This document shows, one piece after another, positions 5,478 to 57,428 of a stretch of DNA of 64,000 nt. Source of the DNA: a virus. The position numbers and the translations under genes were made by a program. Numbering within the stretch: position 1 is the first letter of the stretch; each line of letters starts with the position of its first letter. The notes under the pieces were generated by a model. It ran no database searches, had not been told where the DNA came from, and saw nothing but the letters and a program-made list of their open reading frames with translations. The stretch lies in IMG/VR virus record IMGVR_UViG_3300018022_000004; one strand, written 5' to 3'.

Positions 5478-5702
5478 ATGGAAGACATACGCCTGGAGAG
5501 GGACAGCCCGCCGGTGAAGATTGTCCTGAGGGAGGGGACGCTGGTGGTACACCCCACGAGCAGCGTCCAGAGGAACACCAACCGGGCGGTGGTCTACTTC
5601 ATCCCCAACCCCGGCTACAGCCTTGAGCCTGAGGACACGGGGCACGGCCTGCACGTCTACTTCAGGCCCCCCAGGGAAGAGGCACGCCTCATCCAGTGGT
5701 AA
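5478..5702 (+). CDS. hypothetical protein
   Basis: 74-aa ORF with GGAG SD. Confidence 0.6.
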   Translation: MEDIRLERDSPPVKIVLREGTLVVHPTSSVQRNTNRAVVYFIPNPGYSLEPEDTGHGLHVYFRPPREEARLIQW

Positions 5703-5728
5703 CGGCCTACCGCCGGTATTAGCCTGTA

Positions 5729-7735
5729 ATGAGCAACGAGCAGGCATGCCCGCTGGTCACGGACTACACCCGCCTGGTAGGCATACCCGACGACCTCCTG
5801 GAGCGCCTGTACCTCGTCAGGAGGTGGGACCTCCAGCTAGACGACGAGGGCAACTCCCGCAACCCCATCCCCTTCAAGTGGCCCTCCCTCTTCCGCACCC
5901 GCATACTCAACCTTAACACAGGGCAGGAGGACGAGGACAACCCCCTTGTCCTCAAGCAGTACCAGGTACAGATAGTCCACCACCTGGTCAGGATGCACAG
6001 GTTCATGGTCGGGGACGCCGTGGGCCTCAAGAAGACCTGCGACGTCATAGCCGCCGTCTGCTGGCTCAAGGAGCGCATCCCGGACGTCAAGGCGCTGGTC
6101 GTCACCACCAAGTCCACGACCTGGCAGTGGCACGACGAGGTACGCCGCTTCAGCAGGCTGCGCCCCTTCGTCATGGTGGACTCCTACAAGGGGGAGACCT
6201 CCTACGCTGCCCGGCACCAGCAGCTCAGGGACTTCCTGGCGGGGGGCAAGAAGGACATCCTTATCGGCAAGTACAGCAGCATGATAGGGGCCAGGAGGAG
6301 GGTAGGGGGGCAGTTCGACGAGGACGGCAGGCCAGCCCCGGACAAGCTGGAGGCGGTATCCTCCGAGATAAGGGAGTTCGCAAGGATACTCAGGCAGTAC
6401 GGGAGCCGGGTGGTCCTGGTCTTCGACGAGGCGCACAGGTTCAAGACCCCCGGCTCCCAGACCAGGGCGCTGGTCACCAACCTCCAGAGGCCCTGCAAGT
6501 GGGTATGGGCGCTTACCGGGACGGCGTTCAAGAACTCCGCCGACGAGTTCTACTCCTCCATGAGCGCCCTGGGCGTAAAGCCCTTCGGGAGCATGTGGGA
6601 CTTCGGGGAGGAGTTCTGCATCTACCACAAGCAGTACGTCGGCAGGGGCATCCACAAGCGGGTCCTGGACGGCTACAAGAACATGGAGGGGTTCAAGAGG
6701 GGGATGCGCCCCTTCTACCTAGGGAGGTCGCAGGCCCAGGTCAAGGAGCCTCTGCCCAAGCTCCAGACCACCTACCACCCCGTTGACCTGGACGAGAGGC
6801 AGACCAAGCTGCTGCTGGAGGACATCCCGAGCGGCACCTTCGTGCTCCCCCCCACCCTGGTGAACGTGGCGGGGGAGATATTCGAGAAGGAGCGTGACCC
6901 CAGCAACGCCATGACCATGCTGAGCGTCCAGCAGCTCGTGGCCAACCACTGGGGCCTCCTGGACAGGGAGGACGAGAGGTCCTTCTACTCCCCCGTGCTC
7001 TCGCCCAAGGAGGAGGCGCTCCTGGACCTGCTGGACGGCGACCTGAAGGGCGAGAAGGTCATCGTATTCACCAAGTTCCTCAGGCACATAGACCGCCTGG
7101 ACCGCCTGACCAGGACGGGGAAGTTCACCTCCCGGCGCTTCCTGCGCATTACCGGCAACGAGGACGAGAGGCAGAGGAACGCCGCCAAGCGGCTGTTCCA
7201 GGAGTCGCCGGACCACGACCTGATATTCATCAACGCCGCTGGCATCGAGGGGCTGAACCTCCAGCAGGCGGCCCACATGGTATGCCTGGACCTGCCCTGG
7301 TCCTGGGGCGACCTCATCCAGCTCGTCGGCAGGATGGTCAGGTCCGCCTCCCCCCACTCCCTCTGCACCCTGCACGTCGTCATAGCCAGGGGGACGGTGG
7401 ACGAGTACACCATAGACGTCCTGCTCGGCAAGAAGGGGGTGTTCGAGGTCATCCTCGGGGAGGGCTACTCCGCTGGCCTGCTCGGGGGCAAGGAGGAGCT
7501 GAACCTGGAGTCCGGCATGGACTGCGGGACCGACGAGGAGTTCAAGCTGGAGCTGCTCAGGCACGCCCACCGCAGGGGTTCCTCCCTTAGGAAGTTCCTC
7601 CTGGGGGACAATATAGAGGCAGCCAGGGGGGACGAGGACTACACCATGATTTTCGAGAAGAAACAAGGGAAAACAGGCACGGCGAGTAATAGCAGATGGG
7701 GCTTGGCCATGCAGGAGGAGGAGCCGCTCGGGTAG
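5729..7735 (+). CDS. SNF2-like superfamily 2 helicase/ATPase
   Basis: GDAVGLKKT (motif I variant), DEAH, TGT, GIEGLNLQQA, QLVGRMVR. Confidence 0.85.
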   Translation: MSNEQACPLVTDYTRLVGIPDDLLERLYLVRRWDLQLDDEGNSRNPIPFKWPSLFRTRILNLNTGQEDEDNPLVLKQYQVQIVHHLVRMHRFMVGDAVGLKKTCDVIAAVCWLKERIPDVKALVVTTKSTTWQWHDEVRRFSRLRPFVMVDSYKGETSYAARHQQLRDFLAGGKKDILIGKYSSMIGARRRVGGQFDEDGRPAPDKLEAVSSEIREFARILRQYGSRVVLVFDEAHRFKTPGSQTRALVTNLQRPCKWVWALTGTAFKNSADEFYSSMSALGVKPFGSMWDFGEEFCIYHKQYVGRGIHKRVLDGYKNMEGFKRGMRPFYLGRSQAQVKEPLPKLQTTYHPVDLDERQTKLLLEDIPSGTFVLPPTLVNVAGEIFEKERDPSNAMTMLSVQQLVANHWGLLDREDERSFYSPVLSPKEEALLDLLDGDLKGEKVIVFTKFLRHIDRLDRLTRTGKFTSRRFLRITGNEDERQRNAAKRLFQESPDHDLIFINAAGIEGLNLQQAAHMVCLDLPWSWGDLIQLVGRMVRSASPHSLCTLHVVIARGTVDEYTIDVLLGKKGVFEVILGEGYSAGLLGGKEELNLESGMDCGTDEEFKLELLRHAHRRGSSLRKFLLGDNIEAARGDEDYTMIFEKKQGKTGTASNSRWGLAMQEEEPLG

Positions 7736-8815: not shown

Positions 8816-9012
8816 GAGTCCGGCCCTGTCCTAGCAACCACCTGTCGGTGCTCGGCATACAGGACTATATCGTCGTGGCCAAGGACGGATGGCCGCTGGA
8901 GCTGGTCAAGGGCCGCCCGCTCCTGAACTGGCTGCGCAGGGTGAGGCTGGGGGACCATGCCGAGTGCCGTGCGTGCTTTGAGCAGCGTACGGGCATCAAG
9001 GTGGGCACATAA
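8812..9012 (+). CDS. small hypothetical protein
   Basis: ATGA overlap; CxxC. Confidence 0.55.
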   Translation: MRVRPCPSNHLSVLGIQDYIVVAKDGWPLELVKGRPLLNWLRRVRLGDHAECRACFEQRTGIKVGT

Positions 9013-9470
9013 TGGAAGTAAGGGTCGAGGTAGACCCTACCTTCTGCGGCCCTACACTGGCAGAGCTTGGGGGCACAGTGCAGGACATCCCCGACGACCC
9101 CCTGCCGGTAAGGTGGGAGGGCACCAGGGAGGAGGCAAGGCTGGTAGGGAACCTCCGTGGGTCCCGTAATGTAGTGGTATACGTCCCCTGCCTTGCGGAC
9201 ATGGCTACGGCGGCCTGCGCCCTGGGCGCTCCCCTCCAGGTGGAGGGCAAGAAGGCCATGGAGGCAAGGGACGCCCTGGCAAGCCGCAAGCTATATGACT
9301 GGAAGAGGTACTCGGGCGAGGCAGGGCCGGCAGCGTCGAAGGCCCTGGTGGTCAGGCTGGCGGCCGACGCCGTCCGGCAGGGCATGAGGCCAAAGCTGGC
9401 TCGGATAGCCACGGACGTCCTCCAGGGGAGGGCAAACCCCATGGACGCCGACGTGCTTATGCGCATCTAG
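9012..9470 (+). CDS. hypothetical protein
   Basis: TAATG coupling; 152 aa. Confidence 0.6.
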   Translation: MEVRVEVDPTFCGPTLAELGGTVQDIPDDPLPVRWEGTREEARLVGNLRGSRNVVVYVPCLADMATAACALGAPLQVEGKKAMEARDALASRKLYDWKRYSGEAGPAASKALVVRLAADAVRQGMRPKLARIATDVLQGRANPMDADVLMRI

Positions 9471-18984: not shown

Positions 18985-19030
18985 AAAAAAAGTTCCCGAG
19001 AATCTCGACTACCGGTGGTATTATATAGGT
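18985..19030 (+). promoter_or_regulatory. promoter of tRNA operon 1
   Basis: A7 tract, then CGACTACCGGTGGTATTATATAG; near-identical motif at 41809-41834. Confidence 0.7.
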
Positions 19031-19043
19031 GGAGAAAGCGGCC

Positions 19044-19136
19044 ATGAACAGCCTATCGTACAACTCGTCGTCCTTGAGCTATAGCAGCTCCCTGCTTAGC
19101 AGCTCCCTCGTGTTGTCCGATGGCTGGAACGGGTAA
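19044..19136 (+). CDS. attenuator leader peptide 1, MNSLSYNSSSLSYSSSLLSSSLVLSDGWNG
   Basis: GGAG SD at 19031-19034; 13 Ser, 6 Leu, 2 Tyr in 30 codons; precedes a Tyr/Leu/Ser-only tRNA operon. Confidence 0.85.
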   Translation: MNSLSYNSSSLSYSSSLLSSSLVLSDGWNG

Positions 19137-19168
19137 AGGCCAGCAAAATCGGGCAAGACGAGGCGGCT
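19098..19168 (+). promoter_or_regulatory. antiterminator helix of attenuator 1
   Basis: 19106-19121 pairs with 19148-19163 (15/16 incl. one G-U); inner GCTGG/CCAGC hairpin; overlaps the terminator 5' arm. Confidence 0.75.
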
Positions 19169-19190
19169 GAGAAGCCGCCGTTTTTGTTTT
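19162..19190 (+). terminator. attenuator terminator 1
   Basis: GGCGGCT-GAGA-AGCCGCC then GTTTTTGTTTT. Confidence 0.9.
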
Positions 19191-19201
19191 ATGGGGTTTT
19201 T

Positions 19202-41501: not shown

Positions 41502-41789
41502 ATGCCGAAGCTGATATGGCCCATGCCCGTGACGGGGAACCCCATGGGGATATGGGGGATAGCCAAGGAGTTCGCCACGGTGGCGGAGGCCCAGGCATGG
41601 GTGAGGGAGTACCGCCTGGACGCTGAGAGAGAGGGAATGCTCCTGGTGTCCGGGGGCATGGTCTACAGGCCTACCGAGGAGGGCTTCGCCTCGGCAAGGC
41701 AGTTCGAGGGGGCAGGGGGGCCGACAGGCCCCACAGGCCCATCCAGACCGGAGCCGCCGAGGAAGCCGCACCTGGACGGTACCTGGTAA
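41502..41789 (+). CDS. hypothetical protein
   Basis: GGAGG SD. Confidence 0.6.
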   Translation: MPKLIWPMPVTGNPMGIWGIAKEFATVAEAQAWVREYRLDAEREGMLLVSGGMVYRPTEEGFASARQFEGAGGPTGPTGPSRPEPPRKPHLDGTW

Positions 41790-41794
41790 GGCAA

Positions 41795-41836
41795 GATTTC
41801 CCCGGGTTTTCCGACTACCGGAGGTATTATATAGAT
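41795..41836 (+). promoter_or_regulatory. promoter of tRNA operon 2
   Basis: TTTTCCGACTACCGGAGGTATTATATAG, near-identical to 19003-19028. Confidence 0.72.
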
Positions 41837-41919
41837 GAAAGGCTGGTCACTCAGGGCCGGCAGGGACGGCTGGGAGCCGGACGCAAGTGTTACCCGGTCA
41901 GCCGCCCGAAGATTGGTGG

Positions 41920-42012
41920 ATGATGCGATTCAGGAACCCCAACCCGCAGATGCATTGGCAGCCTAAGCGGAATACCCGCTCGGGCACCGTTGGGCCTCCT
42001 ATCGCAGGCTAG
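41920..42012 (+). CDS. attenuator leader peptide 2, MMRFRNPNPQMHWQPKRNTRSGTVGPPIAG
   Basis: First 18 codons use only M,R,F,N,P,Q,H,W,K, the operon-2 tRNA set; SD is weak (GGTGG close to ATG). Confidence 0.82.
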   Translation: MMRFRNPNPQMHWQPKRNTRSGTVGPPIAG

Positions 42013-42051
42013 CTGAGATTCCAAGGCGATTGAAGTGAAGAGGCCCACCGG
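41987..42051 (+). promoter_or_regulatory. antiterminator helix of attenuator 2
   Basis: CCGTTGGGCCTC (41987-41998) pairs with GAGGCCCACCGG (42040-42051), 11/12; inner ATCGC/GCGAT; covers most of the terminator 5' arm. Confidence 0.8.
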
Positions 42052-42080
42052 GTGATGAACCTGATGGGCTTTTTGGTTTT
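42041..42080 (+). terminator. attenuator terminator 2
   Basis: GCCCACCGGGT-GATGA-ACCTGATGGGC then TTTTTGGTTTT. Confidence 0.85.
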
Positions 42081-42124
42081 ATGGGGATTAAGTCGTGGCG
42101 TGGGTACCTTCCGCCATGCAGAGT

Positions 42125-42201
42125 GTGGCCGAGGCCGAAGTCGTCGAGGCGCTAGGCTGTGAACCTAGTCTAAGAGGGTCCGAGTCCCTCCGGTCACCCC
42201 A
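42125..42201 (+). tRNA. tRNA-His(GTG), no encoded G-1
   Basis: Loop CTGTGAA; C73; T at -1; atypical D loop. Confidence 0.85.
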
Positions 42202-42281
42202 ATCAAGCTGGCAGACCCGTATGACCGTTCCGGGTACTAAGAGCCAAAGGTCGTTAATCATGGCCGCCAGCAAGGTCTTTT

Positions 42282-42358
42282 GGTCCCGTCGCCCAGCGGA
42301 CTAGGGCGCTGCGCTCCGAACGCAGAGGTCGTGGGTCCGAATCCCACCGGGACTTCCA
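42282..42358 (+). tRNA. tRNA-Arg(CCG)
   Basis: Loop CTCCGAA; CCA. Confidence 0.93.
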
Positions 42359-42439
42359 GATTGCGTGGGTGAATCCCCTTGCAGGGGGAGGGATAGGCGG
42401 CCCCAGGCCCAGGGCACGGCGACCCACGCAGAGAGTTTT

Positions 42440-42518
42440 GGCCCCGTAGCTCAGCCTGGACTAGAGCAGCGGTCTACGAAACCGAAGGTCGAGGGTTCAA
42501 ATCCCTCCGGGGCTTCCA
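42440..42518 (+). tRNA. tRNA-Arg(ACG)
   Basis: Loop CTACGAA; CCA. Confidence 0.95.
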
Positions 42519-42613
42519 TCTTGCGCAGGTAGGGTGGCCACAGGGTGAGCAGCGGGAGGCATCCCGAGGACATCTGCAAGACCCCTTATACCATGCCTGC
42601 ACCAGATTATCAG

Positions 42614-42690
42614 GCCCCCGTGGCCCAGACGGATAGGGTACCGGTCCTCGAAACCGGACGCCGAGGGTTCGACTCCCTCCGGGGGTTCCA
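42614..42690 (+). tRNA. tRNA-Arg(TCG) with C33
   Basis: CCGGT-CCTCGAA-ACCGG. Confidence 0.88.
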
Positions 42691-42774
42691 GGTTTGTGGT
42701 GGGTGGTCACGCCGTTGACAACGCCGATGGGCGGACGAGGCGACTGGCCGGGGCGTCCCGCCCGAACAGATTGC

Positions 42775-42861
42775 TGGGGTGTAGGCGACGTTGGTAAAGC
42801 CACTTGACTGTTAATCAAGCGCCTTGCGGCACCGGGGGTTCGATTCCTCCCGCCCCAGCCA
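42775..42861 (+). tRNA. tRNA-Asn(GTT) with long variable arm
   Basis: Loop CTGTTAA; V arm GCC-TTGC-GGC; G73 CCA. Confidence 0.85.
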
Positions 42862-42962
42862 AAGATTGCCGTCCCGACCGTACAGCGGGAAGACGTGTTG
42901 CCACTACCGAAGCAGGACGTCATTGACTAGGTCATAATGTGGCCGGACGGCAACGGGTTAGG

Positions 42963-43039
42963 CCCGTTTAAGCCGATGCGGTGCATGGCGCTCCCCTGAA
43001 AAGGGAGAGAACCCCGTTCGACTCGGGGAGGCGGGACCA
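42963..43039 (+). tRNA. tRNA-Phe(GAA), atypical
   Basis: Loop CTGAAAA; A8; CCCCG/CGGGG T stem; CCA. Confidence 0.8.
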
Positions 43040-43046
43040 AGTTTAT

Positions 43047-43123
43047 CAGGGTGTAGCTCAGCCTGGCAGAGCGCATGCTTGGGGTGCATGAGGCCGTGGG
43101 TTCAAATCCCTCCATCCTGACCA
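43047..43123 (+). tRNA. tRNA-Pro(GGG)
   Basis: Loop TTGGGGT; CCA. Confidence 0.93.
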
Positions 43124-43131
43124 AGTTCCTG

Positions 43132-43210
43132 GCGTGCCAGAGGGTTCGACTCCCGAGGCCAACGGCGCTGTTAGCAAAGGGTTCGACTCCCGAGGCCACC
43201 GGAGGCACGC
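43132..43210 (+). repeat. double T-arm element: 21-nt direct repeat inside a closing stem
   Basis: AGGGTTCGACTCCCGAGGCCA at 43141 and 43178; GCGTGCC/GGCACGC closing stem. Confidence 0.75.
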
Positions 43211-43213
43211 AGA

Positions 43214-43289
43214 CGGTGTGTAGCTCAGCGGCTAGAGCACTCGGTTTGGGGCCGAGGGGTCGTGGGTCCGAATCCCACCACGCCGACCA
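43214..43289 (+). tRNA. tRNA-Pro(TGG)
   Basis: Loop TTTGGGG; CCA. Confidence 0.93.
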
Positions 43290-43296
43290 AGTTTAT

Positions 43297-43373
43297 CAGG
43301 GTGTAGCTCAGCCTGGCAGAGCGCTGGTTTCGGGAACCAGAGGCCGAGAGTTCAAATCTCTCCATCCTGACCA
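43297..43373 (+). tRNA. tRNA-Pro(CGG)
   Basis: Loop TTCGGGA; near-duplicate of Pro(GGG). Confidence 0.94.
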
Positions 43374-43380
43374 AGGTTGT

Positions 43381-43455
43381 TCCGAGGTCGTCTAACCGGT
43401 AGGACGCATGGCTCTGAACCATGAAATGCGGGTTCGACCCCAGCTCTCGGAACCA
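43381..43455 (+). tRNA. tRNA-Gln(CTG)
   Basis: Loop CTCTGAA; T-stem mismatch; CCA. Confidence 0.85.
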
Positions 43456-43557
43456 AGGCTCGGGGAGGGCGAGTTAGCGTGGCCTATGGGCCACTTTATA
43501 GACAGGATGCCTCCCCACTATGCTAGGAAGCAGCTCGGAAGTGGGATGCTTCAGAGT

Positions 43558-43632
43558 TCAGGAGTAGCTCAACGGTAGAGCGTCCGGCTGTTAACCGGAA
43601 TGTTGGGGGTCCGATTCCCTCCTCCTGAGCCA
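43558..43632 (+). tRNA. tRNA-Asn(GTT)
   Basis: Loop CTGTTAA; short V; G73 CCA. Confidence 0.94.
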
Positions 43633-43639
43633 AGCTCAA

Positions 43640-43717
43640 GGGAGCGTAACTCAAAGGGGCAAGAGAGCCAGCCTTTTAAGCTGGTGCGTGCGGGCACCCA
43701 ATCCGCCGCTCCCACCA
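43640..43717 (+). tRNA. tRNA-Lys(TTT) with aberrant T loop
   Basis: CCAGC-CTTTTAA-GCTGG; T loop CACCCAA instead of TTCRANT. Confidence 0.75.
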
Positions 43718-43724
43718 AGGACTA

Positions 43725-43802
43725 GCCGCCGTGGCGCAACTGGACCAGCGCACCCGGCTCTTACCCGGAGGGTTGGAGGTTCGAGTCCTCTCGGCGGCAC
43801 CA
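43725..43802 (+). tRNA. tRNA-Lys(CTT)
   Basis: Loop CTCTTAC; CCA. Confidence 0.9.
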
Positions 43803-43808
43803 AGATTC

Positions 43809-43885
43809 GGGTCGGTAGCTCAACTAGGCAGAGCAAGGGCCTCTTAAGCCCGAGGTTGAGGGTTCGATTCCCTCCCGGCCTACCA
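43809..43885 (+). tRNA. tRNA-Lys(CTT), second
   Basis: Loop CTCTTAA; CCA. Confidence 0.92.
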
Positions 43886-43891
43886 AGAAAG

Positions 43892-43952
43892 CCCGGCGAT
43901 GTGGGGTTCAAGTCCCCACCTTGAGTGTCGTTCAACTGGCTAGGATACCGGG
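43892..43952 (+). ncRNA. circularly permuted tRNA-like module (T arm, mini-hairpin, D arm)
   Basis: CCCGG...GGGGTTCAAGTCCCC...GTTCAACTGGCTAGGAT-A-CCGGG. Confidence 0.55.
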
Positions 43953-43959
43953 GGCATCG

Positions 43960-44034
43960 GCCGATGGAGCTAGGATGGTATAGCGCCTGCCTGAAGAGCA
44001 GGAGTGACCGGTTCGATTCCGGGCATCGGCACCA
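43960..44034 (+). tRNA. tRNA-Phe(GAA), second
   Basis: Loop CTGAAGA; CCA. Confidence 0.9.
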
Positions 44035-44044
44035 AGTTTGTTGT

Positions 44045-44118
44045 TCCGAGGTCGGCTAACGGTAGGCCGCTGCGCTCTGGACGCAGCTATCGGGGTCCGA
44101 ATCCCTGCCTCGGAACCA
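44045..44118 (+). tRNA. tRNA-Gln(CTG), second
   Basis: Loop CTCTGGA; CCA. Confidence 0.9.
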
Positions 44119-44125
44119 GGACTAC

Positions 44126-44202
44126 AGCGGGGTGGAGCAGCCTGGTAGCTCGTGAGGCTCATAACCTCAAGGTCGCCGGTTCAAATCCGGCCCCCGCAAC
44201 CA
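44126..44202 (+). tRNA. tRNA-Met(CAT), initiator-like
   Basis: xGCGGGGTGGAGCAGCCTGGTAGCTC fMet-type body; 1:72 mismatch. Confidence 0.9.
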
Positions 44203-44294
44203 TTCGGGTCGGGATGCCAGCCGGGAGACCGTGACTGGATGCCAAGGGTATACGGCAAAGCCCGTAGAGAGCAGGAACCGGCCCGCAGCATTGA

Positions 44295-44371
44295 TGCGGG
44301 GTAGAACTCTGGTGAGTTTAGGGGTCTCATAAGCCTCTTACAGGTGGGTCCGATTCCCATTCCCGCTACCA
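44295..44371 (+). tRNA. tRNA-CAT (Met/fMet-like; Ile2 not excluded)
   Basis: Loop CTCATAA; T1.T72 mismatch; CCA. Confidence 0.8.
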
Positions 44372-44376
44372 TCTCA

Positions 44377-44452
44377 GGGGCGCAGGGTAGCTCAGTCTGG
44401 TAGAGCAGCCCGGAAAGGCTGGTCGGAGGTTCAAATCCTCCCCCGAGGCCCC
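44377..44452 (+). ncRNA. tRNA mimic with truncated anticodon arm and extended acceptor, no CCA
   Basis: Canonical D and T arms; only 13 nt between them (AGCC-CGGAAA-GGCT hairpin). Confidence 0.6.
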
Positions 44453-44458
44453 GTAGCA

Positions 44459-44554
44459 GGCACGCCGATTCGGAGAGGACCGCAGGCGGCTAACCCAGGA
44501 GCAGCGTACGCAACCTCCCGGACCCCGCAGGCAAGTCGCTGGACAAGGCGTGCC
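44459..44554 (+). ncRNA. putative ~96-nt structured RNA
   Basis: Perfect GGCACGCC/GGCGTGCC closing stem. Confidence 0.4.
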
Positions 44555-44565
44555 GAGGATTACGT

Positions 44566-44643
44566 GGCGGCGTAGCTCAGTCGGCAGAGCCGGGGTCCCA
44601 TAAGCCCTGTGAGTCGGAGGTTCGAGTCCTCTCGCCGCTACCA
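44566..44643 (+). tRNA. tRNA-Met(CAT), elongator-like, C33
   Basis: GGCGGCGTAGCTCAG body; loop CCCATAA. Confidence 0.85.
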
Positions 44644-44644
44644 G

Positions 44645-44835
44645 GATGCGGAGGGCCGCCGTCCACAGACGGGCGGCTGTGGCTCAGTACCGTAGCCGGG
44701 CCTGCTAGCGGGCGAGGCTACGGGCCACGTCCGGTTAGCTCCGGACCTCTACGAGAGTCGAGGGCCGCAGACAGTTGCACAGCGGCAGCCCGGTACCCAT
44801 CCGGGTGTAGCGAGTCGGCATGCTACGGCCTTCGA
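44645..44835 (+). ncRNA. putative multi-hairpin RNA (~190 nt)
   Basis: Run of hairpins: CCGCCGTC/GACGGGCGG, CGTAGCC/GGCTACG, TCCGG/CCGGA, GCCGC/GCGGC, CCCGG/CCGGG. Confidence 0.4.
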
Positions 44836-44840
44836 GCTTT

Positions 44841-45045
44841 GCCCGTGTATGCGAACAGGCACAGCGGCGTACAACGAAGAGAACGCCTCGGTAGGAGCGA
44901 GTTGCGGAGGAACCGAAAGGGGCGGGACGCCCGGAGGCCAGGGACAATCTGGCCACCCTACGGGGTGTAGGGAATCACGTTATCGCCTACCGAAGCAGTC
45001 CCCGCAAGGGACTGTATGCGGGTTCGATTCCCGCCACGGGCACCA
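44841..45045 (+). ncRNA. 205-nt tRNA-Leu-like RNA with a 106-nt inserted domain
   Basis: GCCCGTG/CACGGGC acceptor, A73, CCA; Leu-type D arm; long V arm; canonical T arm; non-canonical anticodon arm. Confidence 0.7.
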
Positions 45046-45048
45046 AGC

Positions 45049-45121
45049 TGGACGCCAGAGATGCGGGTCCGAATCCCGCAGGCACACCGTGCTGCGTAGC
45101 CTTGATGGTAGCAGTGGCCAG
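45049..45121 (+). ncRNA. second permuted tRNA-like module
   Basis: T arm GCGGG-TCCGAAT-CCCGC, closed hairpin, D-like loop with GG, flanks CTGG..CCA/TGGCCAG. Confidence 0.4.
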
Positions 45122-45179
45122 GCTCCTAGGCACCTGGCCGTGCCTTCGTTCAACAGGAAGGACGCTGGCCCTGTTTCCA

Positions 45180-45254
45180 GGCCTGGTAAGCTAACTGGCA
45201 AACTGCCGGTCTCCAAAACCGGACTTAGGGGTTCAAATCCTCTCCAGGTCGCCA
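45180..45254 (+). tRNA. tRNA-Trp(CCA)
   Basis: Loop CTCCAAA; G73 CCA. Confidence 0.92.
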
Positions 45255-45259
45255 AGTCT

Positions 45260-45463
45260 ATGGAAGAAGGGATGCTAGCAGAAGCGTTCGGGAGAATCCT
45301 GAGGTTCCCCCTCAGCCCGGAGGTCGTGATAGTGGGCAGGGAGGTATGGGACAGGCTGCCCGAGGCCGAGGCCCGGATTGTGGAGTTCGACGGGTTCAGG
45401 CACCTGGCGGCTGAGCATAACGGCACCCTCTTCCTCCACCCCCTCTCGGAGGCGGGCGACTGA
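45260..45463 (+). CDS. small hypothetical protein within the tRNA array
   Basis: 67-aa ORF between the two Trp tRNAs. Confidence 0.45.
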   Translation: MEEGMLAEAFGRILRFPLSPEVVIVGREVWDRLPEAEARIVEFDGFRHLAAEHNGTLFLHPLSEAGD

Positions 45464-45470
45464 CTATTGC

Positions 45471-45557
45471 AGGGGCGTGGCCCAGCGGCAACGGCAGCGG
45501 TCTCCAAAACCGCCACGCTACGGCGTTTCGGGGGTTCGAGTCCCTCCGCCCCTGCCA
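45471..45557 (+). tRNA. tRNA-Trp(CCA) with long variable arm
   Basis: Loop CTCCAAA; V arm ACGC-TACG-GCGT; G73 CCA. Confidence 0.85.
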
Positions 45558-45559
45558 AC

Positions 45560-45582
45560 TTTCTGAGGTATTATATAGGTGA
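45560..45582 (+). promoter_or_regulatory. internal promoter
   Basis: GAGGTATTATATAG, identical to the 41821-41834 core. Confidence 0.6.
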
Positions 45583-45618
45583 GCGGTTTTCTGTGCCCCT
45601 TAGTAGGGGGGACGACCT

Positions 45619-46170
45619 ATGAGCCACGACTGCCTGATACTCGACATGAACTGGACGCCGGTCGGCTTCTGCTCCTGGCAGGAGGCGGTCAGGCTGTGGG
45701 TAAAGGACCGTGCCCGGATAGTCAAGGAGGACGAGGCGGGCAGGGTGCTGCACAGCCCCTCCTTCGAGATGGGCATGCCCAGGGTCATCCGGGTGCGGAA
45801 CGCCTGGGTACGGCGCAGGCGGCAGTCCGTCCCCTGCACGAGGCGCAACCTGTTAGTCCGTGACAACGCCGCCTGCCAGTACTGCGGCAGGACCATCAGG
45901 ACGCACGAGTACACCACGGACCACGTCGTGCCCATCTGCCAGGGCGGAAGGACGACCTGGGAGAACACGGTCACGGCATGTATGAAGTGCAACAAGCACA
46001 AGGGCGGCAGGACGCCGGAGCAGGCGGGCATGGAGCTTCTCAGCACGCCCAAGGCCCCCAAGGCAGCGGACCCCCGCTTCAACTTCAAGCTGCACATCAA
46101 GACCATGCGGCCGGAGTGGAAGGACTGGGAGTCCTGGCTGTACTGGAACGCCGTCTTAGACAAGGAGTAA
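45619..46170 (+). CDS. HNH endonuclease
   Basis: CQYCG...TDHVVP...GG.TTWEN.VTAC.KCN..KG. Confidence 0.9.
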   Translation: MSHDCLILDMNWTPVGFCSWQEAVRLWVKDRARIVKEDEAGRVLHSPSFEMGMPRVIRVRNAWVRRRRQSVPCTRRNLLVRDNAACQYCGRTIRTHEYTTDHVVPICQGGRTTWENTVTACMKCNKHKGGRTPEQAGMELLSTPKAPKAADPRFNFKLHIKTMRPEWKDWESWLYWNAVLDKE

Positions 46171-46221
46171 GGCTCGTGGCCCCGTGGGCCAGCCATATAC
46201 GGGGCACAAGATTAGAGTTCC

Positions 46222-46298
46222 ACCCCTGTAGCTCAGCGGACTAGAGTGCCGGTCCTCTAAACCGGGTGACGTGGGTCCGAATCCCACCAGGGGTACCA
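46222..46298 (+). tRNA. tRNA-Arg(TCT) with C33
   Basis: CCGGT-CCTCTAA-ACCGG; CCA. Confidence 0.88.
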
Positions 46299-46332
46299 AG
46301 ATGCCCTAAAGCCAGGGCGAAGGAGCAAGCCT

Positions 46333-46608
46333 ATGCACATACGGTCCCAAGCGCTGGCAGTAGTGGTAGTCCTTTTCGTGCTGGCAGTCGTGCTCCTGTG
46401 GCCGGTAAAGCGCCCGGCGAGCCACTGCCCAAAGCCAGCAGGCGGATGCAGGACGTCCGTGCAGTCGAAGGGGGGAGACGACGATGTCCCCCTGGCATAC
46501 TGGATAGTGATTACCTCGTCCGCCGAGGAAGAAGCAGTGCAGGAAGAGGAGACGCCATCGGATACCGACGTTGATGCTGGCGACGCCGGGGATGGCGGCG
46601 GAGACTAA
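46333..46608 (+). CDS. small membrane/secreted protein with acidic tail
   Basis: GGAG SD; N-terminal hydrophobic helix. Confidence 0.5.
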   Translation: MHIRSQALAVVVVLFVLAVVLLWPVKRPASHCPKPAGGCRTSVQSKGGDDDVPLAYWIVITSSAEEEAVQEEETPSDTDVDAGDAGDGGGD

Positions 46609-46614
46609 GGTTTT

Positions 46615-46690
46615 GGCCCCGTAGCTCAGCGTATAGAGCGGCCGCCTCCTAAGCGGCAGGTCGTGGGTTAGACTCCCACCGGGGCTTCCA
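46615..46690 (+). tRNA. tRNA-Arg(CCT), T loop TTAGACT
   Basis: Loop CTCCTAA; A56; CCA. Confidence 0.88.
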
Positions 46691-46707
46691 TTTTACCAGG
46701 AGGACAG

Positions 46708-46929
46708 ATGGCGGGGACGGGGACGACTAGCACGGCATGGTTCGGCTTCTGGCTCGGGGCTGGCCTGACAGGAGCGTTCATCCTGCTTATGGCCCTGCTC
46801 CGCTACGGCTGGAAGGGGCTGGAGTGGCTCCTCCGTTCGTCCTCGTACAGGCCCGTCGCCTGCCTGCTCCTGGGGATGCTTTTCCTGGGGGCCTACAGGC
46901 TCCTCAGGAGGAGGCTAGGCCAGCAGTAG
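46708..46929 (+). CDS. small two-TM membrane protein
   Basis: AGGAGG SD; hydrophobic. Confidence 0.6.
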   Translation: MAGTGTTSTAWFGFWLGAGLTGAFILLMALLRYGWKGLEWLLRSSSYRPVACLLLGMLFLGAYRLLRRRLGQQ

Positions 46930-46935
46930 ATGCGT

Positions 46936-47014
46936 GTCCCCGTAGCTCAGCCCGGACTAGAGCAGCGGTTTCCTAAACCGAAGGCCGCAGGTTCAAATCC
47001 TGCCGGGGATACCA
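46936..47014 (+). tRNA. tRNA-Arg(CCT), second
   Basis: Loop TTCCTAA; CCA. Confidence 0.93.
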
Positions 47015-47191
47015 AGACCCAGGGAGGAGACATGCAGCCGCCGGACCCCGAGAGGCTTGCCCGCACCAGGGGCGTCTTCCCTATCGACCCCCGCACGCCA
47101 GTATACCCAGTAGAGTTCGAGTTCGTCTGCCCCAAGGAGGATTCCATGGCATTCATACCCCATGCCGGGTGAAGAGACCGGCATCGGAAGG

Positions 47192-47452
47192 ATGACAGCC
47201 ATGAAGCACCCCCGTTCGAGGGCCGAGCGCAGGCACGTGCGCCTCGGCTGGATGTCCCGCCGCCGCTACATCATAGAGCATGTCTGGAGGAGCCACGGGT
47301 GGAAGCCCCAGTGGGGGAGGTTTGCCAAGTGGAACCTCAACTGCGGCTGCCGGAGCTGCCACTACAGCAAGTACGGGGAGAGGCGAAAGCGCCGTCGCTC
47401 CCTGGACCTGGCAGTGGCCCAGGGCCTCGTGGACTACCTACCGCCTCTGTAG
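47192..47452 (+). CDS. Arg-rich basic small protein with CGCRSC
   Basis: Coding-like; GGAAGG SD. Confidence 0.5.
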   Translation: MTAMKHPRSRAERRHVRLGWMSRRRYIIEHVWRSHGWKPQWGRFAKWNLNCGCRSCHYSKYGERRKRRRSLDLAVAQGLVDYLPPL

Positions 47453-55022: not shown

Positions 55023-57428
55023 ATGAAATACGGAACCCAGGCCAGCAAGACCACCACCAGCGGCGGGCTTAACGCCCCGCAGCAGTTCTCCATCCAGAAC
55101 TCGCAGATTGCCTTCGAGACGCTCTCCAGCAGGCTCTACACCGACCCCATCCGTGCGGTCATCCGTGAGCTTAGCTGCAACGCCTACGACGCCCATGTGG
55201 CGGCAGGCAAGAAGGACCAGCCCTTCGAGGTGGCCCTTCCCACCAACTTCGACCCCAGCTTCCGCATCCGTGACTACGGCCCCGGCATGAGCCACGAGCA
55301 GGTGCTCTCGCTCTACTGCACCTACTTCGCCAGCGACAAGACCAACGACAACAGCGTCATCGGTGCCTTCGGGCTGGGCAGCAAGTCCCCCTTCGCCTAC
55401 TTCCTGCGCAACGGGAAGGCGGGGGGGTTCGCCGTCATTAGCTGCTACGGCGGGAAGGCCCGCACCTATGCCGCCTTCATCGACAACGGCTTCCCCAAGG
55501 TCGAGCTACAGGACGAGAGGGACACGGTGCCCGGCAACACCGGGCTTGAGGTCATCTTCCCGGTCGAGCAGCGGGACGTGTGGGAGTTCGAGAACAAGGC
55601 CCGCATCGTGTTCGAGTTCTTCGACCCCCCCCCCAAGTTCAACAAGCGCATGGAGGTGTCCCGCCCCGAGTACACCATCGAGACGGAGCGGTGGGGCCTG
55701 CGCAAGAGCGCCGACACCGAGCAGGGGACGGGCGTGCGTGCCGTCATGGGCGGGGTCGCCTACACGGTCGGCAACATCGACGTGAGCCGCCTCACCGAGG
55801 CGCAGCAGCAGGTGCTAGGCATGCCCCTGGACATCTTCTACAGCATCGGCGAGGTCAACCCCGCCGTCAGCCGTGAGAACCTCCAGCTAGACGCCAGCAC
55901 CATCGACGCCATCAAGAAGTCCCTGGACGAGGTATACGGGGAGATACTGGAGCAGGTGAAGAAGAAGGTCGATGCCGCCCCCAACATGTGGGAAGGCAAA
56001 ATGATTATCTGGAACATGCTCCAGCACGACGCCATCGCCGGGATAGTCAACGCCGCCTACAACAAGGGGCAGCTATCCGGGCAGTATGCCAACTTCACCC
56101 TGACCGGCACGGGCAAGGACCTTGCCGTAAACGAGCTTGACTTCACGTCCATACAGGTCTACCGCTACGAGCGCTCCTGGAGGCGCAGGGGGAGCCAGAG
56201 GGAGGAGATGTTCACCCTCAAGCCCGAGGAGCGCAGCGCTGCCCTAAAGAGCACCGAGTCGGGGGTAGTGGAGCGGAAGGACTACGACTGCGACTTCAAG
56301 GTGGACCCCGAGGTCGCCTTCGTCCTGGACGACATGAAGCCGGGGCGTGCCAACAAGTTCGTGTACGCCTACGTCCAGAACCGGGCATCGGACAACTCCG
56401 AGAAGCGGGTGGTCTACCTGATATCGCCCCTCAAGGACGCCGACCAGAAGGCCGCCCTGGCAGAGGCGGACGGGCTGCTGGCAGCGCTCGGCAACCCTCC
56501 CATAACCGCAGCCAGCGCCTTGCAGGCCAAGTACGACTACCTGTTCCCCAAGCGTGAGTACGTGCCCAGGGAGCGTGGGGTGCTGAGGTTCGAGAAACCC
56601 TACGGCAGCCGCTCCTGGCGAAACGCCTGGAAGGCTGCGACGGCAGAGCAGGTGAACGGCGGCGGGACCAAGCTCTACGTGGTCATCGAGGGGAGGAACC
56701 GGGAGCCGCAGGACGCCCTGGCCGCCAGCTCCCCCCGCAGCTTCGCCTCCCTGGTAGAGCACATGAAGGAGTCGGGGCTGTTCGGGATGGACACCGGCAC
56801 CCCCGTGTTCGGGCTGCGCAAGAACGCCAAGCTGCGCAGGGAGCACGGCTGGACCGAGTTCAGGGGGTACGTGGAGAAGGCGATAAGCCAGGAGATGACC
56901 CCCGTGCGTGAGGCATCCCTCAGCCTCAAGGTCCACCCCTTCCAGACGGACTGGGAGTTCGCCCTGGACTATATCGCCAAGCACCACCCGCTGGACGGGG
57001 GCAGCCCCTTGCAGCAGTTCGCCGACGACCTTGCCGCCGCCAAGAGGGCGCTCGGCAAGTCGGGGGAGCACTTCGCCGCAGTCCTGAACCTGATGGGCAG
57101 GAAGGCGACCGCCGTGGACCTGAACGAGGCCTGGGCAAAGGTGAAGGCGCAGTACCCCGTCATCGACATGTTCGGGCGGCGTGGCTACGGCAGCGGGAAC
57201 GTCAGGGAGACGGACGCCTTCGTGGGCTATGCCCGGATGATAGAGCAGGCGGCCCAGAAGCCCCAGGGGCCTACCAAGGACGAGCTTCGTCGGGCACGCA
57301 AGGCACGCAACCAGAAGGCCTACTACGAGCGCAAGAGGCAGGCGGGGCTGGCAGCCCTGGCCAGCCACCAGGGGAACGATAAGTTCCTTATGGTGAACGG
57401 CGTGCCCGTCCTGGACGGCGCAGTGTAA
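55023..57428 (+). CDS. rIIA: rIIA-like protein (N-terminal GHKL ATPase)
   Basis: LSSRLYTDPIRAVIRELSCNAYDAH, IRDYGPGM, GAFGLGSKSPFAY; rIIB adjacent. Confidence 0.88.
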   Translation: MKYGTQASKTTTSGGLNAPQQFSIQNSQIAFETLSSRLYTDPIRAVIRELSCNAYDAHVAAGKKDQPFEVALPTNFDPSFRIRDYGPGMSHEQVLSLYCTYFASDKTNDNSVIGAFGLGSKSPFAYFLRNGKAGGFAVISCYGGKARTYAAFIDNGFPKVELQDERDTVPGNTGLEVIFPVEQRDVWEFENKARIVFEFFDPPPKFNKRMEVSRPEYTIETERWGLRKSADTEQGTGVRAVMGGVAYTVGNIDVSRLTEAQQQVLGMPLDIFYSIGEVNPAVSRENLQLDASTIDAIKKSLDEVYGEILEQVKKKVDAAPNMWEGKMIIWNMLQHDAIAGIVNAAYNKGQLSGQYANFTLTGTGKDLAVNELDFTSIQVYRYERSWRRRGSQREEMFTLKPEERSAALKSTESGVVERKDYDCDFKVDPEVAFVLDDMKPGRANKFVYAYVQNRASDNSEKRVVYLISPLKDADQKAALAEADGLLAALGNPPITAASALQAKYDYLFPKREYVPRERGVLRFEKPYGSRSWRNAWKAATAEQVNGGGTKLYVVIEGRNREPQDALAASSPRSFASLVEHMKESGLFGMDTGTPVFGLRKNAKLRREHGWTEFRGYVEKAISQEMTPVREASLSLKVHPFQTDWEFALDYIAKHHPLDGGSPLQQFADDLAAAKRALGKSGEHFAAVLNLMGRKATAVDLNEAWAKVKAQYPVIDMFGRRGYGSGNVRETDAFVGYARMIEQAAQKPQGPTKDELRRARKARNQKAYYERKRQAGLAALASHQGNDKFLMVNGVPVLDGAV

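Follow-up and report, generated by a model that had tools for sequence, protein, structure and literature searches.

Introduction

A 64-kb stretch of DNA from a giant phage of peat soil (IMG/VR record IMGVR_UViG_3300018022_000004), analysed over its whole length and called the window below, carries an array of 24 tRNA genes that is preceded by a promoter-like motif, a short open reading frame (ORF) and a terminator. This arrangement raises the question of how the transcription of a phage tRNA array is controlled, and why a terminator should stand in front of it. Codon compensation, the replacement of degraded host tRNAs and the evasion of tRNA-cleaving immunity have been considered as reasons why phages carry tRNAs (PMC10264068, PMC11555353). 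The purpose of these tRNAs has been debated for 50 years, and their regulation has hardly been addressed. On the basis of sequence comparison and folding models, we consider it quite probable that a ribosome-mediated (leader-peptide) transcription attenuator gates the tRNA operon. The front of the short ORF is written in codons that the downstream tRNAs read, and its back would take part in an RNA switch that ends in the terminator.

The Leader ORF and Its tRNA Array

42125-47014, plus strand: array of 24 tRNA genes, interrupted by an HNH endonuclease ORF (ARAGORN, Rfam and Pfam)
41915-41919, plus strand: Shine-Dalgarno-like GGTGG, separated by 3 nt from the ATG at 41923 (read from the sequence)
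41920-42012, plus strand: leader ORF, 30 codons long if started at 41920 and 29 if, as is likelier, started at 41923, with the stop codon TAG at 42010-42012
41923-41973, plus strand: sensing segment of 17 codons, which uses only M, R, F, N, P, Q, H, W and K and contains all nine

The array encodes one His, six Arg, two Asn, two Phe, three Pro, two Gln-CUG, two Lys-CUU, one Lys-UUU-like, three Met-CAU and two Trp tRNAs, that is, nine amino acids in total (H, R, N, F, P, Q, K, M and W). ARAGORN called 23 of them at 42131-47014, the first being tRNA-His. The 24th, missed by ARAGORN, was found with Rfam at 43640-43714 (39.5 bits); its anticodon loop, CTTTTAA, corresponds to Lys-UUU, and it has a 7-bp acceptor stem with CCA and a non-canonical T-loop (CACCCAA). 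The two programs thus arrive at the same count that the original prediction, made from the sequence alone, had given, namely 24 tRNAs for exactly nine amino acids. Two other places in the array drew our attention: a weak tRNA-like Rfam match lies between two Met tRNAs at 44385-44444 (33.7 bits, truncated model), and a long gap at 44643-45180 holds no called tRNA. A candidate tRNA-Leu-like RNA had been noted in this gap, at 44841-45045, from the sequence alone.

The ORF was confirmed at 41920-42012 as described, but the start codon assigned to it at 41920 gave way to a likelier one, the second ATG at 41923, which would probably give a leader of 29 codons with 17 sensing codons. We read 41923 as the start because ACG replaces the first ATG (41921 T>C) in the L050 lineage as well as in contigs from three further runs, with the rest of the ORF unchanged, because the leader of a distant relative, G001, has a single ATG, and because GGTGG is better spaced for the ATG at 41923 than for the first one. 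Shine-Dalgarno-like sites are present in the relatives as well (GGTGGACG-ATG in L050 and GGAGAGAC-ATG in G001). Leader length (29-31 codons) and frame are conserved in five lineages. The statement that the front of the leader is restricted to nine amino acids, all present and all matching the downstream tRNAs, agrees with the ARAGORN and Rfam calls and still holds with the start at 41923. The codon list likewise stands: Arg is written as CGA, AGG, CGG and CGC, Pro as CCC, CCG and CCT, Gln only as CAG and Lys only as AAG.

Four types of tRNA operon are distinguished in what follows: op1 (Tyr/Leu/Ser), op2 (the nine-amino-acid array described above), op3 (Val/Gly/Ala/Asp/Glu/Cys and Ile-UAU) and op4 (Ile-GAU/Thr/Gln-UUG). 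Under standard wobble rules, all 17 sensing codons of the op2 leader are readable by its own array, as compared with 0-2 of 17 by the other arrays. In the 68 greedy gene calls of the 64-kb window, 33.5% of the codons are readable by the op2 array; tested against this background, the 17/17 match has P = 8.6e-9, and the occurrence of all nine residues contributes a further factor of 0.065. When all six frames of the window were scanned for array-readable runs, the longest was the op2 leader itself, with 20 codons, and the runner-up had 11. The background test and the run scan rule out chance or a codon-bias artefact as the source of the match. A competing ORF at 41835-41966 was also considered and rejected; it is not conserved and stops after 5 codons in the related locus L049.

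The Proposed RNA Switch

41924-41943, plus strand: region 1, which overlies codons 2-8 and pairs with region 2 as an anti-antiterminator, like the 1:2 helix of trp (minimum free energy, MFE, folding)
41984-42006, plus strand: region 2, the non-sensing tail of the ORF, whose alternative partners are region 1 and the 5' arm of the terminator
42042-42080, plus strand: intrinsic terminator with the stem 42042-42053/42059-42070, the loop GATGA and a T-tract at 42070-42080

The terminator was found downstream of the ORF as claimed (42042-42070 with a T-tract to 42080), and it ends, T-tract included, 45 nt before tRNA-His. Its hairpin has a predicted energy of -17.3 kcal/mol in the window and -21.4 kcal/mol in L049, where a C.A mismatch of the window's stem is replaced by U.G. 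A simple terminator scan misses it because of this one internal mismatch. The proposed pairing between the 3' end of the ORF and the 5' arm of the terminator was recovered in the folds: the antiterminator consists of 41984-41998 with 42040-42053, extended by 42002-42005 with 42035-42038. In the MFE structure of the full op2 leader, the 41924-41943/41989-42006 helix and the terminator are present together. Across four sequences, the divergent G001 among them, this helix is 96.9% paired and shows one compensatory change. The named helices are 85-92% paired, as compared with 27-50% in slid controls, and show 2-5 compensatory pairs in alignments of 4-5 sequences.

The switch was assessed by explicit state energies and shuffle controls. 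The pairing probability of region 3 as a function of ribosome position was uninformative, because this GC-rich RNA always finds some partner. In folding, the tail paired with the 5' arm of the terminator when the 3' arm was withheld or when a ribosome was placed on codon 6, 12 or 17, and the terminator alone remained when the RNA was masked through 12 nt beyond the stop codon; the predicted footprint of a ribosome at the stop codon is about 41995-42022. With the ribosome stalled at codon 18, the gain from the antiterminator was -15.5 kcal/mol, as compared with -6.8 +/- 2.4 kcal/mol in 500 dinucleotide shuffles of the free upstream part (3/500, z = -3.6). In all eight leaders that were folded, the antiterminator forms without the 3' arm and the terminator forms with a ribosome at the stop codon. 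With -61.7 kcal/mol for the terminator state and -49.1 kcal/mol for the antiterminator state, stability favors the terminator, so that kinetics must decide between the two, as they do in known attenuators.

Computation thus supports the claim that the locus is laid out as an attenuator, with a promoter motif, a Shine-Dalgarno-like GGTGG, an ORF of cognate codons, 1:2, 2:3 and 3:4 helices, and a terminator before the first tRNA. At the level of sequence, every element that defines a leader-peptide attenuator is present. The attenuator would work as follows. Transcription would start just past the conserved promoter motif, and a ribosome would translate the 29-codon leader while RNA polymerase advances. 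If all 17 sensing codons are decoded fast, the ribosome at the tail or stop codon would cover region 2, so that the terminator (42042-42070 and the U-tract) would form and transcription would end before tRNA-His, yielding no tRNAs. If any cognate aminoacyl-tRNA is scarce, the ribosome would stall within 41923-41973, where it would block region 1 and leave region 2 free; region 2 would then pair with the 5' arm of the terminator, and the polymerase would read through into the 24 tRNA genes. The new tRNAs would relieve the stall, and since they read the leader's own codons, the outcome would be negative feedback on the decoding capacity for nine amino acids. The trigger could be the loss of host tRNAs during infection, a tRNA-cleaving defence or a mismatch in codon demand; phage tRNAs are known to act against tRNA-cleaving defence systems (PMC10264068, PMC11555353). 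Sequence and computation show the ORF, the codon match, the three alternative helices and their conservation; that the leader is translated, that ribosomes stall on it, which way the switch turns and what triggers it physiologically are what we infer from them.

The opposite polarity has also to be weighed, in which a stalled ribosome would uncouple and cause termination, possibly of the Rho type, so that tRNA synthesis would require decoding to be fast beforehand. This explanation draws on the Rho-dependent polarity that follows ribosome stalling, a well-known phenomenon in bacteria. It has to contend with the position of the 5' strand of the antiterminator, which lies 3' of the sensing codons, just ahead of the stop codon, so that no ribosome but one close to the stop codon would mask it, and with the canonical hairpin and U-tract terminator present in every cassette. 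Positive feedback of this kind would also be without obvious benefit. We regard a reversed or Rho-type switch as very unlikely, and retain the attenuator that opens upon stalling.

Recurrence in a Second Array and in Relatives

41813-41834, plus strand: promoter-like motif of 22 nt, GACTACCGGNGGTATTATATAG (= GACTACCGGAGGTATTATATAG), with an AT-rich, -10-like core
19007-19200, plus strand: sister attenuator of the Tyr/Leu/Ser array (op1)

The window has exactly two copies of the promoter motif (19007 and 41813), as compared with 0 expected. The second copy belongs to the op2 locus, where the upstream gene ends at 41789 and the promoter sits between this gene and the terminator. The first copy (19007-19028) is followed by GGAG, a 30-codon ORF at 19045-19137 with 13 Ser, 6 Leu and 2 Tyr codons, a predicted antiterminator of 19105-19121 with 19148-19165, and a terminator at 19162-19179 with a T-tract. 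The codons of this op1 leader match their own array at 15 of 17 positions and the other arrays at 0-2 of 17. It has no 1:2 helix, and the antiterminator is its default fold; it appears to be a simpler, two-state version of the switch, in which termination would occur only if the ribosome reaches the tail.

Pattern searches with the promoter motif in IMG/VR and in peat and wetland metagenome contigs retrieved the relatives. The motif stands before the leaders of tRNA arrays at 7 loci from IMG/VR and 28 from peat metagenomes, and the four operon types were found in more than 50 loci, each type with its own leader. The core of the op3 leader reads like ITEVDVIAAVAAGCEGD, and the op4 leader reads like TIT..TQTQTTI, with Gln as CAA. 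Counted over codons 2-18, the matches of the op1, op2, op3 and op4 leaders to their own arrays are 15, 17, 13 and 10 of 17, respectively, as compared with 0-3 of 17 to the other arrays. The choice of codon follows the isoacceptor in the case of Gln: where the array has tRNA-Gln(CUG), its leader uses CAG, and where the array has tRNA-Gln(UUG), its leader uses CAA.

The arrays themselves share only two codons. AAA is the sole sense codon unread by the tRNAs of the four arrays when the Lys-UUU-like tRNA at 43640-43714 is set aside; this tRNA would cover it, and with it all 61 sense codons are covered. As read from their codons, the four sensors together partition the sense codons.

Support from a divergent relative comes from G001, an IMG/VR contig of 316,945 bp (99% complete) that carries all four operons. 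Its op2 leader starts MRNRKPNPMQWQPKRHF and contains the same nine residues, all present, in another order; 16 of 16 codons are readable by its own array, and the same 1:2, 2:3 and 3:4 helices are formed from different sequence. In a fifth lineage (L066-L070), the sensing part is the same, and the tail end and the terminator differ. The original prediction had held that relatives which keep the RNA structure without the codon match would speak against an attenuator; the relatives keep both the switch and the match. A check that it proposed, whether leader codons change with tRNA content in related phages, did not come out cleanly for Lys, as AAA does not follow tRNA-Lys(UUU). A switch from a Lys to an Asn anticodon between G001 and L067 was considered and dropped, the tRNAs being not homologous.

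These data bear on an alternative in which there is a genuine switch with a translated ORF, but what is sensed is general translation or the coupling of ribosome and polymerase, the codon match being a by-product, for example of readability by the phage's own tRNAs. Any translated leader in front of a terminator would give coupling-dependent termination, and both the unmatched codons in several leaders and the lack of co-variation between AAA and Lys-UUU fit with a sensor of this general kind. Left unexplained, however, are the restriction of four leaders to the codons of their own array with avoidance of those of the other three, the survival of the nine-residue set through its reordering in G001, and the free use of other amino acids in the tails, which serve RNA pairing. 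We consider such a general sensor unlikely, and favor a leader that responds to its cognate codons.

Several individual loci showed features of their own. In L004, a 120-aa ORF at 1640-2002 on the plus strand lies between the terminator of the op4 attenuator and the first tRNA, with a weak DUF6915 match (26.4 bits, just below the cut-off of 27); from its position after the terminator, it would be co-regulated with the Ile/Thr/Gln tRNAs. A structured region of about 190 nt stands ahead of the leader ORF in the Ile/Thr/Gln operon. The Val/Gly/Ala operon of G001 (L065, minus strand) has two tandem promoter-like motifs about 400 nt upstream of tRNA-Val(UAC), separated by a GC-rich RNA of about 200 nt that is apparently structured. 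In L017 (about 9000-9290), a distance of 1.7 kb, with inserted coding sequence in it, separates the op1 promoter from the leader downstream, and the leader ORF is two codons shorter and still rich in Ser, Leu and Tyr.

Selection on Codons and on RNA

Population variants were read from metagenome DNA contigs. A haplotype in contigs of three independent runs carries about 8 substitutions and 7 indels in 41835-41921 and two changes at 42082-42083, with zero changes within 41923-42081. Assuming an even spread, the probability that all 15 changes would fall in the 87-nt upstream part is about 2e-7. L049 departs from the window by a single, synonymous change in the 51-nt sensing part, and it differs in both the tail and the spacer. 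In the op1 locus of L044, the tail peptide is changed from VLSDGWNG to VSVEEGD with the helix kept (GGCUGG/CCAGC to GGGGG/CCCCC), and one Ser codon of the op1 leader changes family, from TCC to AGC. As the sensing part is nearly unchanged and the tail peptide diverges with its pairing kept, the front of the ORF appears to be conserved as codons and the back as RNA.

The same comparison bears on the simplest reading of such ORFs, namely that they encode functional small peptides, or that the hairpin is merely the terminator of the upstream gene, with the composition match being meaningless for regulation. Small phage proteins are common, and a comparable ORF of the phage phiCbK, gp335, is annotated as a hypothetical protein. 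The peptide tails diverge with the RNA pairing kept, however, and Pfam and Rfam gave no match. Firing a promoter towards a terminator some 250 nt away would make no sense unless this terminator is conditional, and a chance match is excluded at about 1e-8 and replicated four times. Among the explanations weighed here, we consider this the most improbable, and we continue with the attenuator.

Points That Weigh against an Attenuator

A number of observations speak against a codon-sensing attenuator or limit its reach. Not every leader codon is matched: the op1 leader has, for example, conserved Asn codons, and the op3 and op4 leaders stay at 13/17 and 10/17. AAA and Lys-UUU do not co-vary, as G001 has both, L067 has AAA with no detected tRNA-Lys(UUU), and the window has the tRNA with no AAA. 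The original claim that a stall on any sensed codon would open the switch is plausible, but its strength varies along the ORF: stalls at codons 2-13 would directly mask region 1, and stalls at codons 14-18, which leave region 1 uncovered, would have to act via steric exclusion or queued ribosomes. In the untranslated op2 RNA, the antiterminator is no better than in shuffles (74/200), because region 1 competes, so that without translation the switch may go either way. The covariation, resting on 4-5 sequences, is statistically modest, supportive but shallow.

The extent of the transcript is a further point. An HNH endonuclease ORF lies inside the array at 45619-46170 (Pfam HNH_5, 4.7e-16), and a partial copy of the promoter (3' half, GAGGTATTATATAG) stands at 45565-45578, directly after a tRNA-Trp and before this ORF. 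From their sequence, the two could be a mobile insertion with its own promoter, and the partial promoter may independently transcribe the HNH gene and the last three Arg tRNAs. Protein-coding ORFs also follow the array, with no obvious terminator between. Finally, a search of public runs for RNA data returned none.

Further Features of the Leader and the Window

41842-41861 and 41863-41907, plus strand: structured 5' leader with the hairpin P1 and the long hairpin P2, respectively (MFE folds)
42076-42086, plus strand: conserved GTTTTATGGGG directly after the terminator stem

An 85-nt structured stretch separates the promoter motif from GGTGG. The segment 41842-41907, which comprises P1 and P2, is the most variable part of the leader among natural populations. 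The P1 and P2 stems are retained with different sequence in L049, L050 and G001, and a hairpin is also present in L064; the apical stem-loop of P2, CCGGAC...GTTACCCGG, is kept even in the distant G001, and the lower stem covaries. The P1/P2 region gave no match to an Rfam family. P2 could be a pause site, a stability element or a protein-binding site. At the other end of the leader, GTTTTATGGGG occurs only twice in the window (19186-19196 and 42076-42086), each time following an attenuator terminator, and it also trails the op3 and op4 terminators of relatives; in the L050 lineage it is changed to GTTTTACAGGG (TG>CA).

The neighbouring genes of the window (rIIA-like, SNF2 helicase, radical SAM and HNH) indicate a large tailed phage and nothing more. 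The N-terminal half of an 801-aa ORF at 55023-57428 is like rIIA of T4-like Aeromonas phages (33% identity, E = 6e-41), and this ORF gave no Pfam match. A search for close relatives among GenBank phages gave matches at the level of tRNAs only, and the protein encoded upstream of the op2 leader has no relative in IMG/VR.

Comparison with Known Systems

Classical leader-peptide attenuators include E. coli and Salmonella trpL, hisL, leuL, thrL and pheL and the multivalent ones of ilvGMEDA and ilvBN, and in the thr and ilv cases a single leader already responds to two or three amino acids. The op2 leader resembles the trp, his and ilv leaders in having a short, putatively translated ORF rich in regulatory codons, mutually exclusive 1:2, 2:3 and 3:4 helices and an intrinsic terminator, and we propose that, as in the classical systems, the supply of charged tRNA is sensed via ribosome position. 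It differs in its cargo, which consists of tRNA genes instead of enzyme genes, so that the product would feed back on the decoding of the leader. Whereas classical leaders contain runs of one residue, nine amino acids occur here, mostly once or twice each. A phage-borne set of four leaders that partitions the code, with codon choice at the level of isoacceptors (CAG versus CAA), is likewise unlike the classical attenuators.

Leader peptides are also found in front of synthetase genes, as with pheST/pheM in gamma-proteobacteria and the candidate trpS and leuS attenuators in Streptomyces, and these share with the present locus the control of a translation component for the sensed amino acid (PMC1262725). 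They differ in being cellular and in sensing a single amino acid for a protein gene, whereas the op2 leader is viral and would control the tRNAs themselves. Of the systems described so far, the multivalent ilv and thr leaders and the pheST, trpS and leuS attenuators come closest.

T-box riboswitches, too, report tRNA status through a terminator/antiterminator decision upstream of translation-related genes. A T-box binds uncharged tRNA directly and needs no translation, whereas the proposed sensor here is a translated ORF. A T-box (Stem I specifier loop, T-box sequence, RF00230) was considered for this locus and rejected: cmscan of 41700-47300 and of the op4 leader (E <= 0.1-1) returned only tRNAs and no other Rfam family.

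The cultured Caulobacter phage phiCbK (NC_019405.1, L055), inspected by eye, offers a similar picture, with short ORFs and annotated rho-independent terminators directly before tRNA blocks. At 5541-5770, two Pro, two Lys, three Leu and two Ser tRNAs come after an annotated terminator and gp335, a 45-aa ORF with many S, L, P, K, A and T residues; at 7340-7503, an unannotated ORF with QFVRQIQVV and a terminator precede Phe, Val, Ile, Ile, Val, Gln, Gln and Gly tRNAs. The phiCbK loci differ from ours in having no sequence homology, another promoter and a looser match with many Ala and Thr. phiCbK could serve as an experimental model.

In the full-text literature, we found no description of leader-peptide control of tRNA genes, although absence there is no proof of novelty. 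The words attenuat-, leader and terminator are all absent from a 2026 survey of phage tRNAs.

Implications

A leader spelled in the codons of its own cargo implies a phage that gauges decoding capacity and produces tRNAs when they are needed. The debate about the purpose of phage tRNAs would thereby become testable, by asking which perturbation opens the switch. Leader-peptide attenuation would be extended from enzymes and synthetases to tRNA genes, with nine amino acids per sensor, and the leader would be a compact natural sensor of isoacceptor availability. For the annotation of tRNA arrays in large phages, the locus suggests a rule: a short ORF, then a terminator, then a tRNA block. Taken together, the four leaders may monitor the decoding of essentially every sense codon, as a modular, codon-resolved tRNA homeostat in which each leader would replenish just the tRNAs that read its codons and only the affected module would respond, a tentative reading whose chances we place a little short of even. 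Activation could then follow the loss of host tRNAs, from anticodon-nuclease defences or host shut-off. If true, this homeostat would be an undescribed sensing layer of the phage-host tRNA arms race.

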